This document shows, piece after piece, positions 4,203 to 26,593 of a stretch of 64,000 bases of DNA. Position numbers and translations under genes: made by a program. How positions within the stretch are numbered: position 1 is the stretch's first letter; every line of letters begins with the position of its first letter. Under the pieces are notes generated by a model. That model saw only the letters and a program-made list of their open reading frames with translations, did not search any database and was not told the origin of the DNA. This DNA comes from Escherichia phage SUT_E520: sequence record OQ990040; one strand, 5' to 3'.

Positions 4203-4274
4203 TACCGACCGTAGGATTCGAACCTACATCTTCCACCAGTTACGGCTTGATAATACCAATTATACTAGGACGGC
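4203..4274 (-). tRNA. tRNA-like element, possibly degenerate; anticodon not resolved (CGU is one possible reading)
   Basis: Perfect T arm GTAGG-TTCGAAT-CCTAC and 6/7 acceptor pairing, but irregular D and anticodon arms and no encoded CCA. Confidence 0.35.
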
Positions 4275-5980: not shown

Positions 5981-6010
5981 AATAGCCTCGTTTCATCAAT
6001 TTAAAAATAT

Positions 6011-6039
6011 ATTATACAGATAACTTAGTAACTTAGTAA
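6011..6039 (-). promoter_or_regulatory. sigma70-type early promoter (TTACTA-17-TATAAT)
   Basis: Minus-strand hexamers at 17-nt spacing upstream of the receiver gene. Confidence 0.5.
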
Positions 6040-6430
6040 ATTAGCAAATACATTTTTAAATTGTGAAACTAGTAAACCGATAAACAGCCTAGAGGCGCCA
6101 CAGGCCATATCTTATGAGCCATGTACCTTTGATCTAGGGTTTGAATCATCAACGAATACTTTGCATCTTTTAGCTTTAGAAGTTTAGAAGTTTGAGTTCT
6201 TTAAACTTTTCAGCTTTCATACTTAAATGTTGATCTTTGAAGTTGTGTCGGTAATATCAACGACGCTTTGTTCTTACGTGTCAGCTTAAAAGGCTGGTGT
6301 AATAAACATAATCTCCAATAGATTATACTTTATAGTATGGTCAGCGGTCTTATTTAACCCCGTATTTCAACCGCTGCTGCGAGGTAAGATGCTTGGGCTT
6401 TCGTCTACCGATTTACTAGCTTTTAAATTA

Positions 6431-8077: not shown

Positions 8078-8105
8078 AAGTTATCCTTTATTGTGTAGAA
8101 AACTA

Positions 8106-8342
8106 TTAAAGAGCTGTCTCTTTAATAGACTCCCACTTCTTGGGGTCTTTAAAACCAGGGAGCATATCCTCACTGACATCCCAGTTCTCTTCCATAGAGA
8201 AGTCGGGCCATTCATCCCAACTACCTTCCAACTCTTCATAACAGGTATCCATTACCTCATGACTAGAAAGTCGTGTATAATCCCTAGCTGACTTATGGGT
8301 GGTAGCACGGTTAAAATCATTCTTTGCCACAAAATTACGCAT
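8106..8342 (-). CDS. hypothetical small acidic Trp-rich protein
   Basis: 78-aa ORF; C-terminal half is Asp/Glu/Trp-rich (EELEGSWDEWPDFSMEENWDVSEDM). Confidence 0.5.
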   Translation of the reverse strand: MRNFVAKNDFNRATTHKSARDYTRLSSHEVMDTCYEELEGSWDEWPDFSMEENWDVSEDMLPGFKDPKKWESIKETAL

Positions 8343-8357
8343 AGTTTCTCCAAATAA

Positions 8358-8380
8358 GAGGGGCTTTCGCCCCCTGATTT
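8358..8380. terminator. GC hairpin, intergenic terminator or attenuator
   Basis: GGGGC-TTTC-GCCCC hairpin flanked by A/T runs on both strands. Confidence 0.45.
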
Positions 8381-8383
8381 AAA

Positions 8384-8599
8384 TCACTTGCCCAGCAGTT
8401 TAAGGATATTTTCCATAATAGTTTGGGCAGATTTTTCACTCTTGTTGGTTTCAGCCAACTTTAAAGCGAGTTCTTCCTGCTGTTTCTGAATATCAGCTGC
8501 GATTTTTTGATCAGCCTCAATACGAGCTTGAAGCTCATCAGTGATAGTGGTAAAGGAAGCAACGATTTCAGTAACAGAACGTGGTTTCTTAGAGAACAT
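8384..8599 (-). CDS. hypothetical small helical protein
   Basis: 71-aa ORF behind RBS AAGGATATTTTTT. Confidence 0.5.
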   Translation of the reverse strand: MFSKKPRSVTEIVASFTTITDELQARIEADQKIAADIQKQQEELALKLAETNKSEKSAQTIMENILKLLGK

Positions 8600-8663
8600 A
8601 AAAAATATCCTTGATTAGTTAGAGAATTAGTGGATTGTAGGGGCTTCTGCCCCTATTTATCTA

Positions 8664-17700: not shown

Positions 17701-17773
17701 AAATAACACTCCTATAGTGTACTTCGCTAACAGAGGATCAACAAAAAGATCTTGTTTATCAACTTACAAATAT

Positions 17774-17802
17774 ATTATACCAATATATACAGTAAAAAGC
17801 AA
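17774..17802 (-). promoter_or_regulatory. sigma70-type early promoter (TTGCTT-17-TATAAT) for the phoH unit
   Basis: Minus-strand hexamers at 17-nt spacing. Confidence 0.6.
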
Positions 17803-17994
17803 CTACAATTTTAAATAAGCCTATGATATTGCATTTAAATAAAAAATTTGCTTGCTTTTAACGTGAGATGTGTGATACTAGATAATCATTTTATATCGCG
17901 TGCACGAGTGTGTGATTATACAATTTTTAATAGAGATTGGCAAATAAAATTTTTTGACTCAGATCATGTTACAGAACTTTATAGTAAAATATTG

Positions 17995-18023
17995 TTGACA
18001 TCCGCCCTCGAATGAGTTATAAT
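17995..18023 (+). promoter_or_regulatory. consensus sigma70 promoter (TTGACA-17-TATAAT) for nrdD
   Basis: Perfect -35 and -10 hexamers at 17-nt spacing, about 30 nt upstream of the nrdD start. Confidence 0.8.
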
Positions 18024-18052
18024 AGTAGTCTTAGTTAGAGAAGGAGAGTATA

Positions 18053-19969: not shown

Positions 19970-19998
19970 TTGCTTTCAGCCAAAAATTTATATATAAT
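19970..19998 (+). promoter_or_regulatory. sigma70-type early promoter (TTGCTT-17-TATAAT) with ATAAATTTGAGAGGAG leader
   Basis: Hexamers at 17-nt spacing followed by the conserved leader and RBS. Confidence 0.7.
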
Positions 19999-22099: not shown

Positions 22100-22528
22100 A
22101 TGTTCAATAATGTATTCTCTAAAGAAGCTAACCCAATTTTGGTTAACTTTTGGCGTACTCTTCCAGCTAGCCTGTATAATGAGGCTATTAACTCTTTGAA
22201 AATATGGTGTGAGAATAACGAAATCTACTTTGCTTTTAAAGATGATATTGATGAAGCCCCCTGTATTGGTTTAATTGTTCAGGTAGAGGAGGGTCTTGAA
22301 GAGATTGTCGGCTGGAAAGAGTTAGATGAAATGGGCTTAGTTTTTGCGTTAAACTATAAGCTGTTTATGCCTGCTAAGCATCGCCTCGTTGTTAACTATA
22401 AAACTAGTGAATCTCCTGGTTTTCAAGTTAATGAACGTTACGGTTGGTCTTACTCACCAGAAGAAGTGAATGATGGTATCCAAAAACTTCGCCGTTTCGG
22501 GTATATGATCCCAGGTTTAACTGCTTAA
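22100..22528 (+). CDS. hypothetical protein, paralog A of a tandem pair
   Basis: 142-aa ORF behind RBS AAGGTG; shares PCIG and ELDEMGLVFALN with the next ORF. Confidence 0.6.
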   Translation: MFNNVFSKEANPILVNFWRTLPASLYNEAINSLKIWCENNEIYFAFKDDIDEAPCIGLIVQVEEGLEEIVGWKELDEMGLVFALNYKLFMPAKHRLVVNYKTSESPGFQVNERYGWSYSPEEVNDGIQKLRRFGYMIPGLTA

Positions 22529-22537
22529 GGAGGCAGA

Positions 22538-22927
22538 ATGGAACAAGTATATTGGCGTCAGATTGACCCTAGTTTGGTGAAACGTGCGGAGAAGCTGCTA
22601 CAACGTTGGTTGGGGGTAAGACAAGCCTCCTTCACTTTTCCTGAGCAGCAAATAGATGATCCATGCATTGGCGTTTTCCTGTCTGGATACGCCAGGGAAT
22701 GGGAACTGGATTGGAATGAGTTGTCTGCTATGGGTTTAATTGTTGCCCTAAATTTCTCTTTGTTCCATCCACGTGGTTTTGCCATATGTCGTGTGCCGGA
22801 TGATGGTTGTTCGCCCCATCTTTTACAGGTGGAAAATGATATTTGGGAGTACACTCCAGATATTCTCAAAGAAGCTAAAGAACAATTAAACCGTGTTGGG
22901 ATATATGTTCCGGGATTAAATGACTAA
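22538..22927 (+). CDS. hypothetical protein, paralog B of a tandem pair
   Basis: 129-aa ORF behind RBS TAAGGAGG; shares PCIG, ELSAMGLIVALN and C-terminal VPGLND with the previous ORF. Confidence 0.6.
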   Translation: MEQVYWRQIDPSLVKRAEKLLQRWLGVRQASFTFPEQQIDDPCIGVFLSGYAREWELDWNELSAMGLIVALNFSLFHPRGFAICRVPDDGCSPHLLQVENDIWEYTPDILKEAKEQLNRVGIYVPGLND

Positions 22928-22953
22928 TGATTTTTATTAGCTGAACTCTGATT

Positions 22954-22980
22954 ACCGAGTCATTTTGGCTCGGTTTTATC
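22954..22980 (+). terminator. intrinsic terminator
   Basis: Hairpin ACCGAG...CTCGGT followed by TTTTAT. Confidence 0.6.
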
Positions 22981-23011
22981 CGTACTCAAGACCAATGATA
23001 GCACCATCCGG

Positions 23012-23040
23012 AAAATTTTACTTGCAGGATGCTCAAAATC
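23012..23040 (+). promoter_or_regulatory. sigma70-type promoter (TTGCAG-17-TATAAT) with ATTGAATTGAGAG leader and no adjacent ORF
   Basis: Hexamers at 17-nt spacing; next plausible start codon is about 500 nt downstream. Confidence 0.55.
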
Positions 23041-23549
23041 TTGATATAATATTTATATTGAATTGAGAGATATTAGTAAAAATTGATTTTGCTAATTTTT
23101 CTTGTTTACAATCCGCGATACGGAACAGTTAGGCTGCCCAATTAAGGGTTGTTTTAACTGTTACGTGTTAGTTTTTAAACAAATAGTTAATAGAATACTT
23201 AGCGATCTGCGTCCCGTAGGAACCCTGGTAAGGCCTCGAAGCAACCTAGATAGAGGTGGTTGTGAAGTGAGACGGGAGGAGTGAAAAACTCCGAGACGTG
23301 ATTCTGTAAGTTATATTGCATCTAGTATGAGCTAGTACATGAAGCATTAGGTGAGCAAATCTGGCTTAGCGGCCATCCTCAAGGATTTGTGCGGTATAGC
23401 AAAGCAGCAGCGCAGCGTGAAAGTGGAAGTTGCCACCCCACTTCAGTATTTGCGATTAATTTGTTGAGAAATTGACAGTAACAGTTGTTCTATTCTTTCT
23501 GAATAGTCCTAAAGAAAACTTATTTCATTTCCAACACAGGAGTATTGTT

Positions 23550-26339
23550 GTGTTCTCAATCCTACAAGGTCATGCAGGATTTCATCGCGATTTAGCCACA
23601 GGCAATTGGCGAGAAGTTAAAGCAGAAGACTATCTTTTTGCTAAAAGATTTTCCTCAAAGCATCCTGAAGGTAAACCAGCTTCAATGCCCTTCAAGTTTG
23701 ATGTAATTGATGAAGTTGATCCTCAAACCCTAGTAGAAATGCTTCCTCTTATGAGACGTTTAACGTCTGACCCTCATATCGTTGCGGTACGAGGTCGATG
23801 TCTTACACCTAAAAATAATGTGCGACGTAAGAAGGGCAACTTTAATGTATCTAACCCAAGTCATATAATTGCAATGGACGTGGATGGTATTGTAGATACA
23901 GGTGGTTGCAACAAGTTTGATCTTGTTGGCATGGCTCGACATATTATTAGAATGTTAAATAGTATTAGTGAGGATATGTTTCCTCTTGATGCAGGGTTTA
24001 TCGCTCATGCATCGTCTTCGGCTGGGCTAAAACCAGGTATCCGAATGCACTTAATACTAGAATCTAATGTTAAAGTAACTCAGGGTCAAATCAAATTCTT
24101 ATTTACATCTATCAACGAAAGTAGTAGACAAAAGTATGGCTTTGATATTGCCGACTTAGCTTATTACTCTTCCGTACAGCTCCACTATTTTGCAGATCCG
24201 TTATTTACCGATGGTATAGTAGATCCGTTTAAAGCGGAGGGTGCTTCACGTCTGGTATTTGTTAAGGGTTCTAAAGTAAATTTACCCAATAATCTGGTTG
24301 ACTATGAAACAACTAGAGGTGAGTTTAAGGAGGAGTTTTACTCTTTACTCGATCAAATTAAAGGTAAAAAAGCTGCCTCTGATAAAGTAGAGGAAACTAT
24401 CAGCGAACTAGAAGAAGCTGAGGATGGAGTGTATCTACGTATCATACCTAAACTCTATCACAGAGCCTTAGAGGATGGTGTTGATTTTGCATGGCTAGAA
24501 AAAGAAATCCGTCCAGCCTTATCAGAATATATTGCAACTAAAGATAACAGTCGCAATATTCAAGATTACTTTAATAACGGTCGTAAACAGGCTCTGAAAG
24601 CATTTGTTAATAATTCTAAACGTGATATACCTGATGTTTTAAAGGGTATTCCACTTAAAAAGCTAGAAACTAATTCTCTAGAAACTGATAACTTCTTGAA
24701 ATTAAATACTGTACCACCAGAAGGTTATATGACTTTTGTAAAAGCAAGTCTAGGTACAGGTAAAACTACAGCGGTTGTGCGTTGGTTAGATTCAGGAGTT
24801 ATTAAAGGTAATTTCTTAGCAATTACCAATACTAGAGCACTGGTATCTTCAAATGCCAAGAAATTTAGTGCAGGACAATATGATAAGTCTGTAGATATGC
24901 TTAATTTTAAGCGGGGTGCTATTGACCGTATGTCCACAACTATTCACTCTTTGCATAAATTCAAGAGTTTTATTGGTCAAATTGATGCAATCTTTATCGA
25001 TGAATGTGATGCAGTAATGAATGACCTATTATTCGCCCCGGTTGTTAAACAACGTCGCGAGTGTATTCAGGTTCTTCGGGATATTCTTGCAACTGCAAAA
25101 ATCATTATATTATCTGATGGGGATATTAGTGCAGAAACAATTGAAGCATATGGTTCTTTGATTGAGTTTGATAAACCAGTAGCATTTTATAACCATCACC
25201 GTAAAATGCTATCAAAAGCTCATGCTTATGAGTTCCCGGATGAATCCAGTATTTGGGTTGCACTTCAGACTTCTCTAGAGATGGGTGAGAAATCTATCCT
25301 AGTATCTGACTGTGGGCCGGATGAACTGAATGAGAAGGGTATGGCATTGCGTCGTAATACGGGTGCGTTAGTTAAGGAAATCCACTCAAATTCTACATCC
25401 GATGTAGATATTCGACGTATTCTGGATTACACAACTAATGAGCTAATTGATCAACAAATTGATTGCTTATTATGTAGTCCATCCGTAACAAGTGGTGTTG
25501 ACTTCAACTATTTTGATAACGTATTCGTTATTACTAGAACCAGCAACCAAGCGCCAAACATGCGTTTCCAAGCAATCAGGCGCGACCGTGGCGCTCAGAA
25601 CATTTATTATTTTATTGATAAATCTACGAGTGGATTCTCCGCAGGTTCTGAGCAATATAACATTGACGAAGGTTGGCTGGAGTTAGCACAACAATTATAC
25701 GCACGTCGTAGAGAGCTGGAATCTAGGAATTATACTAGTACTTTACGTTATTACTTGCTTGATCAGGGTGCAACTATTGATATTTTCAGTGAAAGCTGGG
25801 GAACTATCGAAGGTGCTGGGAAGGAATATACGGAAGAGCGAATCAAAGCTATTTTATATTCAACTCCTGATTATTGTGCTCCACGTCATGCTGATGCGTA
25901 TGAAGCTAAACTACTTCTTGTTCGCTACTATCATCTTGAGTCTATTAAAGATGTAACAGTTGAGCATGTTGAACAATATATCAAGGATAAACCTAATGAT
26001 CGAGCGGCATTCTTCCATAAAATGCACGAGATGTTCTGGGAAGATATTAAGAAGTGTTCAAATGTCACTATCAAACCATTCATAGAAGCTCTGAAAGGTA
26101 AGAAGAAAGATTTCTTCCTTAAAACAGGTCAGAGTGCTAACCCAAAATATGCCAGAATGTATCTTGGTATGATGGGTATTGGTAAGGATATGAACACTGA
26201 AAATATTGTAGACTGGTACAGAACCTATTGTAAAATCGAGTGTATGCCAATCCCCTATAAGTTTATGACTGATGAGGAGAAACATATGCATGATGAAGCA
26301 ATGGCAGAGCTAGGTGCTAGAAATGACAGTGAAGAATAA
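23550..26339 (+). CDS. large replication-associated protein: N-terminal AEP/PrimPol-like domain plus P-loop NTPase (helicase-like)
   Basis: ORF track 23472..26339; GTG start at 23550 behind RBS CAGGAG; DxD (IIAMDVDG), sxH-like (GIRMHLIL), Walker A ASLGTGKTT, Walker B IFIDECD. Confidence 0.6.
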   Translation: MFSILQGHAGFHRDLATGNWREVKAEDYLFAKRFSSKHPEGKPASMPFKFDVIDEVDPQTLVEMLPLMRRLTSDPHIVAVRGRCLTPKNNVRRKKGNFNVSNPSHIIAMDVDGIVDTGGCNKFDLVGMARHIIRMLNSISEDMFPLDAGFIAHASSSAGLKPGIRMHLILESNVKVTQGQIKFLFTSINESSRQKYGFDIADLAYYSSVQLHYFADPLFTDGIVDPFKAEGASRLVFVKGSKVNLPNNLVDYETTRGEFKEEFYSLLDQIKGKKAASDKVEETISELEEAEDGVYLRIIPKLYHRALEDGVDFAWLEKEIRPALSEYIATKDNSRNIQDYFNNGRKQALKAFVNNSKRDIPDVLKGIPLKKLETNSLETDNFLKLNTVPPEGYMTFVKASLGTGKTTAVVRWLDSGVIKGNFLAITNTRALVSSNAKKFSAGQYDKSVDMLNFKRGAIDRMSTTIHSLHKFKSFIGQIDAIFIDECDAVMNDLLFAPVVKQRRECIQVLRDILATAKIIILSDGDISAETIEAYGSLIEFDKPVAFYNHHRKMLSKAHAYEFPDESSIWVALQTSLEMGEKSILVSDCGPDELNEKGMALRRNTGALVKEIHSNSTSDVDIRRILDYTTNELIDQQIDCLLCSPSVTSGVDFNYFDNVFVITRTSNQAPNMRFQAIRRDRGAQNIYYFIDKSTSGFSAGSEQYNIDEGWLELAQQLYARRRELESRNYTSTLRYYLLDQGATIDIFSESWGTIEGAGKEYTEERIKAILYSTPDYCAPRHADAYEAKLLLVRYYHLESIKDVTVEHVEQYIKDKPNDRAAFFHKMHEMFWEDIKKCSNVTIKPFIEALKGKKKDFFLKTGQSANPKYARMYLGMMGIGKDMNTENIVDWYRTYCKIECMPIPYKFMTDEEKHMHDEAMAELGARNDSEE

Positions 26340-26564: not shown

Positions 26565-26593
26565 TTGCATAGTGCAAAAAATTTCTGTATAAT
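26565..26593 (+). promoter_or_regulatory. sigma70-type early promoter (TTGCAT-17-TATAAT) with ATAAATTTGAGAGAGGAG leader
   Basis: Hexamers at 17-nt spacing followed by the conserved leader and RBS. Confidence 0.65.

Follow-up and report, generated by a model that had tools for sequence, protein, structure and literature searches.

The D2 locus of a T5-like phage

The 64,000-nucleotide (nt) stretch of Escherichia phage SUT_E520 analyzed here (sequence record OQ990040, hereafter the window) belongs to a T5-like phage. The subject of this work is the region between an early-type promoter and the gene of the D2 helicase, where ~493 nt without a conserved open reading frame (ORF) separate the promoter from the D2 start. 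We find that this leader is a conserved structured RNA, with compensatory base pairs above those of controls and with pairing that concerns one strand. It matches no catalogued RNA family and is a structured phage leader or a non-coding RNA. We suggest, at a probability of about one half, that it is the 5′ leader of the D2 messenger RNA (mRNA) and acts in cis on the expression or processing of D2.

The region is 100% identical to that of Escherichia phage SUT_E1520 by database match, and 537 records of T5-like phages (Demerecviridae; hosts Escherichia, Salmonella, Klebsiella and others) match it, about 163 of them with the core type of the window, called type A below. The large gene, for which a first-pass annotation of the sequence had proposed a GTG start, indeed begins with GTG at 23550 after the Shine-Dalgarno sequence AGGAG at 23538-23542. 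It is D2, as follows from its matches to Pfam Herpes_ori_bp, PHROG 3712 and NCBIfam CyRepA1; the T5 orthologue was characterized as a bipolar helicase (PMC3632103). A sequence search of solved structures was uninformative, and a homologue search with the N-terminal domain of D2 gave two fragments only. D2 is the only gene served by the leader promoter, the next promoter being located at 26588. DUF7415 proteins are encoded upstream of the leader, and D2 is followed by the gene of another helicase. The DUF7415 proteins are the products of tandem paralogues just 5′ of the leader (22100-22528 and 22538-22927), each with a DUF7415 domain (PHROG 2502, unknown function). The terminator behind them is kept in relatives, and the records of T5 (AY543070) and of phage Lindwurm annotate a terminator at the homologous position.

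With ORFs of at least 80 amino acids (aa) masked, positions 22928-23471 form one of the longest stretches without ORFs in the window, the tRNA cluster excepted. The first-pass annotation had seen about 500 nt without a convincing ORF here, and the T5 GenBank record likewise annotates nothing in the 470 nt after the promoter. Further stretches of the window without an ORF of at least 80 aa (340-590 nt) are found at 8078-8663, 5981-6388 and 17710-18052; they may hold small genes or non-coding elements.

The leader promoter and its GAGAG element

The promoter, described earlier as TTGCAG and TATAAT at a distance of 17 nt followed by a GAGAG leader motif, is present in this form (Table 1), and the motif reads TTGAGAG at 23063-23069. 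By its sequence, it belongs to the T5 early promoter class, with a −35 element of the form TTGC(T/A), a 17-nt spacer, TATAAT, an A/T-rich upstream region and ...TTGAGAG downstream. The −35 and −10 hexamers are unchanged in all sequence types described below, and the T5 record annotates a promoter at the homologous site, as it does the terminator. A simple promoter scan missed the leader promoter, because TTGCAG matches TTGACA at only three of six positions.

The composite TATAAT-N(5-25)-TGAGAG occurs seven times in the window against 0.44 expected. The six other promoters of this kind (window positions 642, 5150, 19993, 26588, 28830 and 38630) all carry the GAGAG motif and share the TATAAT...ATAAATTTGAGAG module with the leader promoter; the one at 26588 is identical over the module stretch to the classical T5 PN25-type sequence. 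At 19993 and 26588, the two promoters checked, an ATG follows GAGAG after ~10-12 nt, and GAGAG is therefore probably the Shine-Dalgarno sequence there. With an ATG this close at these two promoters, the 493-nt leader is exceptional for this phage. We infer transcription from the leader promoter from its fit to the T5 early class and from the promoter annotated in the T5 homologue. The start would be at about 23057, by analogy with T5 promoters.

A large RNA domain common to divergent sequence types

Regions upstream of D2 orthologues were gathered from IMG/VR, metagenomes and GenBank phages and gave 45 distinct leaders of at least nine sequence types, with few additional types contributed by the metagenome scan. 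The types are A (this window), B (T5), C (Klebsiella phage Sugarland-like), D (Providencia phage PR1-like), E (Pectobacterium phage My1), F (Yersinia phage phiR2-01), L040, L058 (L with a number denotes a locus of our collection) and a Proteus phage PM135-like type; the hosts are E. coli, Salmonella, Klebsiella, Yersinia, Pectobacterium, Proteus and Providencia. Measured between the −10 element and the start codon, the leader has 480-505 nt in six of the nine types, with mostly unalignable sequences. It reaches 600-773 nt in the phiR2-01 (with an optional insert), PR1-like and PM135-like types and in some insert-bearing type A and B phages.

Nine independent minimum free energy (MFE) folds share one order of elements, namely P1, a long closing helix, a UUAGCGG hairpin and a 3′ hairpin. 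P1 is a hairpin of 16-21 base pairs (bp) in the folds of all nine divergent types, each time with a different sequence. GAGAG forms its 5′ arm, and the Shine-Dalgarno-like motif is thereby sequestered in the MFE fold. The long closing helix, P2, has 19-34 bp of unrelated sequences and spans 318-352 nt in the folds of eight of the nine type representatives; in the ninth, Klebsiella type it is absent from the fold of the representative and present in that of a variant. The core domain which P2 closes is 319-353 nt long in every type.

The inside of the domain is built of several helices (Table 1). P3 shows compensatory changes from CUGCG/CGCAG to CUACA/UGUAG, CUGUG/CACAG and CCAUA/UAUGG, and helices 4-6 of the structure used for pair counts, which bear on P3, are 88-97% paired. 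For the P4/P5 subdomain the corresponding helix 7 is 95% paired, with four of five pairs changed on both sides. P5 is the local hairpin GGAGTGAAAAACTCC that the first-pass annotation had singled out, and is located at 23278-23292. Such local hairpins do exist; they are, however, not isolated features but parts of one large domain. The loop of P5 is A-rich in several types and reads GAAAA in types A and L058; loop and closing pair are the same as in the lambda nutR boxB hairpin.

The most constant element is found in P7. The motif CUUAGCGG is unchanged in 38 of 38 distinct sequences and the inner GCU-UAGC-GGC hairpin is invariant, while the sequence of the outer stem differs among all nine types. 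The distance of the invariant motif from the 5′ end of P2 is 204-224 nt in every type, and that from the 3′ end is 112-128 nt. Candidate pseudoknot partners of the invariant loop are UGCUAA near P1 and GGCUGC in the conserved block; both are invariant, and covariation is thus uninformative. The loop motif GUUGCCA of P9 is common to several types. Outside the domain, the conserved block between P1 and P2 is kept in types A, B, C, E, F and L040 and has a compensatory CGG...CCG in L058, the sequence of P10 is kept in types A, B, C and F, and the start-codon hairpin of the Klebsiella type has one compensatory change, from CAC...GUG to CAU...AUG.

Table 1. Positions of the leader RNA elements and of the features that border them in the window
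Feature	Position	Strand	Description
Upstream gene, 129 aa, DUF7415	ends 22927		Directly before the terminator
Intrinsic terminator	22955..22977	+	CCGAGTCA-TTT-TGGCTCGG then TTTT; from sequence; closes the upstream transcription unit
T5 early-type sigma-70 promoter	23010..23056	+	−35 TTGCAG 23022-23027, 17-nt spacer, extended −10 TGaTATAAT 23042-23050 (TG 23042-23043, TATAAT 23045-23050), A/T-rich upstream
P1, 5′-terminal hairpin, 16 bp	23065..23103	+	GAGAGAUAUUAGUAAAA / UUUUGCUAAUUUUUCUU; 23065-81 with 23087-103
Conserved block	23117..23139	+	GAUACGGAACAGUUAGGCUGCCC (also written GAUACGGAACAGUNNGGCUGCCC); small hairpin CAG-UNNGG-CUG inside
Core domain, 332 nt	23155..23487	+	Closed by P2; MFE folds
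P2, closing helix, about 30-32 bp	23155-23188 with 23454-23487	+	Near-continuous duplex
P3	23202..23211 with 23411-23418	+	5′ strand GCG-AU-CUGCG, 3′ strand CGCAG-CGU; encloses P4 to P8
P4 subdomain	23212..23292, including P5	+	UCCCGU 23212-17 with ACGGGA 23272-77, plus inner hairpins; RNAalifold on type A
P5 hairpin	23278-23292	+	GGAGU-GAAAA-ACUCC; RNAalifold on type A
P7	23355..23390	+	Outer stem GCAAAUCU (23355-62) with GGAUUUGU (23383-90); inner hairpin GGCU-UAGC-GGCC (23363-74)
P9 hairpin	23421..23443	+	AAGUGG - loop AAGUUGCCACC - CCACUU; all 6 pairs change on both sides (covariance-model alignment)
P10, small hairpin	23490..23506	+	CUAUUC-UUUCU-GAAUAG; between domain and ribosome-binding site; MFE fold
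Shine-Dalgarno/start-codon hairpin	23533..23554	+	AACACAG 23533-39 with UUGUGUU 23548-54; MFE fold
D2 helicase, 929 aa, "replication origin binding protein"	23550..26339	+	GTG start

Pairing is maintained by compensatory changes

In alignment-free tests the invariant motif served as the only anchor for the segments to be folded, and each type had 500 dinucleotide shuffles as controls. The P2 duplex gives z values of −1.2 to −7.9 (Fisher p = 1e-12), P1 of −3.3 to −5.7 (Fisher p = 3e-14), and the P7 outer stem a Fisher p of 9e-6; types A, B and F have the outermost 9 bp of P2 in common and are not fully independent in these tests.

For the pair counts, the RNAalifold structure of type A alone was projected onto a MAFFT alignment of 38 sequences; RNAalifold run directly on this very divergent alignment returned an empty structure. 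The projected structure has 79.7% of its cells paired against 37-47% with partners slid, and a covariation score of 0.310 against 0.08-0.12 with partners slid. Changes on both sides are found in 73 of 102 pairs, compared with 53.4 ± 3.4 in shuffled controls, none of 500 of which reaches 73, and with 41-51 in slid ones. Because the structure was derived from one group within the alignment, part of its lead over the slid controls is inherent in the procedure. In these counts (alignment A3), 19 of the 30 pairs of P2 change on both sides.

The alignment-free tests and the covariance-model alignment do not entirely share this weakness. The covariance model covers P7-P9 over 93 positions, and in its alignment, which leans towards its own model, 87.4% of the cells are paired against 40-48% in controls and 16 of 18 pairs are changed on both sides; for the outer stem of P7 these values are 93% of cells and eight of eight pairs. 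The model has one match in the 64-kb window, one in each enterobacterial locus, and weak matches at the correct place in the held-out Providencia type, with no detection of the Aeromonas, Vibrio or Proteus (L042) loci.

Compensation is also seen within type A, where CUGCG/CGCAG is replaced by CUACA/UGUAG, CCCGU/ACGGG by CCCAU/AUGGG, GGAGU/ACUCC by AGAGU/ACUCU, AAGUGG/CCACUU by AAGGGG/CCCCUU and, in P2, UAACUG/CAGUUA by UAACUA/UAGUUA. Finally, G-U cells outnumber A-C cells (555 versus 112), and it is therefore the + strand, in the sense of the D2 mRNA, that folds. The sequences entering the covariation counts are related; nevertheless three different approaches agree, and a chance result is very unlikely. 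Of the natures considered by the first-pass annotation, the structured leader is strongly supported by the architecture and the covariation across at least nine divergent types.

Coding, regulatory and catalogued RNA alternatives

The same data bear on the question whether the stretch is an unannotated small protein gene, or the remnant of a decaying gene, intron or mobile element without RNA function. Several records annotate "hypothetical proteins" within it, an optional 89-nt insertion with TTTTTCTT repeats is found in 51 phages, and the 60-codon frame without a ribosome-binding site reported earlier is real (23102-23284, TTG start). That frame, however, has only 21 aa in T5 and 28-32 aa elsewhere (60, 21, 32 and 28 aa), lacks a Shine-Dalgarno sequence and was rejected as a gene. 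Chance ORFs of different types run through the conserved block in different frames; its conservation is therefore not coding. In addition, substitutions track base-pairing and not codon positions, the length and architecture are clearly constrained, and no Rfam intron or ribozyme matches at E up to 10. We thus regard a gene or gene remnant as very improbable.

At the gathering threshold, Rfam 15 matched only tRNAs in the whole window. For 22850-23650 at E up to 10 it gave three chance-level matches of 13-14 bits, with no intron or ribozyme among them, and there was no match in eight related loci with the GOLLD and ROOL models included. ARAGORN reported nothing in the leader region. Elsewhere in the window, Rfam places a third tRNA-like sequence at 4203-4274 on the − strand (35.5 bits) which ARAGORN does not report.

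Three specific classes were tried and rejected. A group I intron is not supported, with no Rfam intron match. A retron msr-msd, suggested by flanking inverted repeats and a UUAGCG string, has no reverse transcriptase among the leader neighbors, to which this screen of the window was confined, and the invariant G residues are paired inside P7, where a retron would need an unpaired branching G; UUAGCGAU at 23199-23206 is not kept in type B. As for a riboswitch or attenuator, there is no terminator between the domain and D2, and the sole alternative pairing is not maintained. This pairing, of 23120-31 with 23155-66, would join the block to the 5′ arm of P2 and compete with P2; it is lost when P2 changes, while P2 itself is compensated.

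A replication origin was another option raised by the first-pass annotation. In this case the promoter-driven transcript would form an RNA-DNA hybrid, as a primer RNA, or recruit D2. Such transcripts operate in ColE1 (RNA II) and at the transcription-activated origins of T4 and T7, and the ColE1 primer is comparable in size to the ~490-nt leader. The region is located directly 5′ of the only origin-binding-type initiator gene and near mid-genome in T5 (59.5 kb of 121.75 kb), and a strong promoter is followed there by ~490 nt of untranslated, length-conserved, structured RNA. Multiple internal T5 origins seen by electron microscopy, cited in PMC3632103, would fit as well. On the other hand, no iterons or repeated protein-binding motifs are found in the stretch: there is no direct-repeat family of at least 9 nt beyond one chance pair and no recurring k-mer of at least 9 nt. 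DnaA boxes are absent from it too, the single match with one mismatch (~23592) being inside D2. The conservation tracks the pairing of one RNA strand and not the sequence of duplex DNA, and the nearly unconstrained variation of the interior would not be expected of a DNA site that an initiator recognizes. The T5 strand bias of the recombitron study points to dominant unidirectional replication from one genome end and argues against a dominant central origin. We regard an origin or primer RNA as improbable, and the earlier proposal finds no support at the DNA level.

Exchange of the interior and linkage to D2

Between the window and T5 (types A and B), the identity is 98% over the 98 nt at the 5′ end of the leader, 90% in its 3′ part and 86% in D2. 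In the domain interior (23155-23487; T5 is locus L019) it falls to 64%, against a shuffled expectation of 59%. The window interior is nearer to that of the far more distant phages L040 and L058 (69-72%) than to T5, and blocks of it, namely P4, P5 followed by GAGAAGUGA, and the P9 loop GUUGCCA, are recognizable in the My1 and Klebsiella types. A near-random interior between flanks of 86-98% identity implies recombinational exchange of the core between lineages.

The optional 89-nt insert forms a hairpin and is flanked by TTTTTCTT direct repeats. It is located between P1 and the block (~23095), once per genome, in 51 of the ~537 records, and is combined with different core types (as in L010, L023, L032 and L035).

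In every locus examined, the RNA is directly 5′ of D2. HNH homing-endonuclease genes are present in some of the records opened, where they stand between the terminator and a replacement promoter; none separates the RNA from D2. Such a gene with its own promoter is found at L064:443-895 (Salmonella phage S132), in L065 and in the upstream regions of L007, L013, L021 and L026. The insertion replaces the upstream half of the leader promoter, and the leader then begins with ...ATAAATGAGAGAC. Neither a terminator nor a second promoter was found between the domain and D2.

A related arrangement may exist in Aeromonas T5-like phages. In two of them (L061:957-2546, vB_AdhS_TS3, and L049:1-1808) an ORF-free region of ~1.3-1.6 kb separates the divergent nrdD from the helicase gene. 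The two regions are 61% identical, and RNAalifold proposes 308 pairs in them, 84 of which are compensatory; the region may be a giant structured RNA. It contains two to three UUAGCGG hairpins and has no Rfam match; its end is formed by a conserved terminator-like hairpin located ~80 nt from the helicase start. Homology to the T5 domain is a lead only, suggested by the UUAGCGG hairpins and the position.

These observations bear on the main rival of a cis-acting leader, in which the core is a stable non-coding RNA that acts in trans. It would be excised at P2, like ribosomal RNA from its precursor, or be separately terminated in some phages. It could, for instance, belong to the machinery for replication or packaging, titrate a host factor or defence system as a sponge or decoy, or assemble into an RNA particle by itself, and its adjacency to D2 would only ensure early co-expression. 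Such an RNA would account for the long closing helix that joins both ends of a compact 332-nt domain, for the invariant loop on a hypervariable scaffold, and for an interior exchanged like a cassette among near-identical phages (64% versus 86-98% in the flanks and 59% at random). The terminator-like hairpin before the Aeromonas helicase gene, with 84 compensatory pairs between the two phages, fits as well. However, the RNA adjoins D2 in every record opened out of the 537 matching ones, is present in one copy per genome window without any duplicate or relocated version, and has no terminator after the domain in the T5-like phages of enterobacteria. No target complementarity above chance is seen, CUUAGCGG or its complement occurring five times in the window versus 2.4 expected, and the covariance model does not detect the Aeromonas-T5 homology. 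We regard a trans-acting RNA as a serious rival, though a less probable one than the cis-acting leader. The small RNA offered by the first-pass annotation stands insofar as the long helix closing the core would be excisable; with ~330 nt it would be a large RNA and not a small one.

In the same vein, we tentatively consider that the 332-nt domain may represent a new class of large phage non-coding RNA, released at P2 and acting with the initiator or against a host factor or defence. If this were so, its interior would be a specificity cassette swapped between phages, and the Aeromonas region of ~1.3 kb a giant relative.

Proposed function as a cis-acting leader of the D2 mRNA

We suggest the following sequence of events for a leader that acts in cis. 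Host RNA polymerase would start at the T5 early promoter at ~23057, and the first 47 nt would fold into P1, which may neutralize the inherited GAGAG and cap the 5′ end. P2 would then be cleaved by RNase III. RNase III substrates are duplexes of the size of P2, about 20 bp or more or two helical turns, and P2 has 19-34 bp. With the cleavage the 5′ part would be detached, and a trimmed D2 mRNA would remain that has P10 at its end and begins ~60 nt upstream of the GTG.

The small Shine-Dalgarno/start-codon hairpin may keep translation low. We infer that the invariant UAGC loop, presented on a fast-evolving scaffold, has a ligand or partner, and suggest that it is a docking site for a protein or RNA. 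The candidate partner is D2 itself, providing feedback on the initiator, or another phage or host factor; autoregulation by D2 would parallel that of T4 gene 32 and gene 43.

Several points weigh against such a cis-acting leader. RNase III cleavage is predicted solely from the helix length, and known translational operators of phage replication genes are far simpler than a 330-nt domain with an invariant loop. The swap of the interior among near-identical phages would be uncommon in a plain housekeeping leader and suggests a possible role in specificity or in an arms race. The ORF-free Aeromonas region with its terminator-like hairpin would fit an independent RNA, and the Vibrio T5-like phages have a D2 orthologue without the leader RNA; a more distant metagenomic relative lacks the RNA too. 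Literature searches for a T5 transcriptome, a description of the D2 leader or an origin map gave nothing specific. No paper describing the leader was found; PMC10690425, a survey of 10,000 putative structured RNAs of viruses, names neither T5 nor D2 in its text, and its tables may list the region.

T5 is a classical model phage, and the leader provides a specific, well-delimited RNA candidate for the start of its replication and the control of D2; phages from six or more enterobacterial host genera have kept this RNA. It can be approached by mutation through P2, the invariant UAGC hairpin and the natural alternative "alleles" of the core. It also adds to the known RNAs a large covariation-supported family absent from Rfam. 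Its pattern of conserved flanks and fold with an exchanged interior is one that in proteins usually marks loci of specificity or conflict.

Comparison with known systems

Within T5 itself, the leader promoter is like the PN25-type early promoters in its −35 TTGC, 17-nt spacer, TATAAT, A/T-rich upstream region and downstream ATAAATTTGAGAG-like element. At 19993 and 26588 an ATG soon follows GAGAG; at the leader promoter, GAGAG pairs within P1 and the next 480 nt hold no gene.

ColE1 RNA II is likewise untranslated, transcribed from a promoter, ~500 nt long and dependent on its secondary structure, and it is located beside replication functions; at the leader, however, no hybrid-forming G/C-rich segments, iterons or origin evidence were found. 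As a fast-evolving phage RNA, phi29 pRNA resembles it in another respect, together with GOLLD and ROOL: all are large, ornate phage RNAs that keep their structure while their sequence evolves fast. GOLLD and ROOL are discussed in bioRxiv 10.1101/2024.12.08.627333. In contrast to these RNAs, the leader fails the Rfam models and is a part of an mRNA leader tied to one gene, rather than free-standing near tRNAs or a genome end.

The lambda N leader and the RNase III sites of the T7 early mRNAs share with the D2 leader an early promoter, an untranslated structured leader and a long imperfect duplex 5′ of the ribosome-binding site, and the proposed outcome, a trimmed mRNA with changed translation or stability, is the same. 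Those sites are single hairpins of ~20-30 bp in leaders of roughly 200 nt or less, whereas the duplex of the T5 leader closes a 332-nt multi-helix domain with an invariant loop, and its cleavage is a prediction. The operators of T4 gene 32 (a pseudoknot), gene 43 and regA are similar in being structured 5′ untranslated regions of a replication protein with plausible autoregulation; the case of the gene 32 translational operator is cited in PMC10690425. They measure tens of nt and are located beside the ribosome-binding site, while the leader has ~490 nt, its loop is ~180 nt 5′ of the start codon, and its binding is putative. Hence, the D2 leader is most like the RNase III leaders of lambda and T7 and the T4 operators, being several times larger and more elaborate than either.

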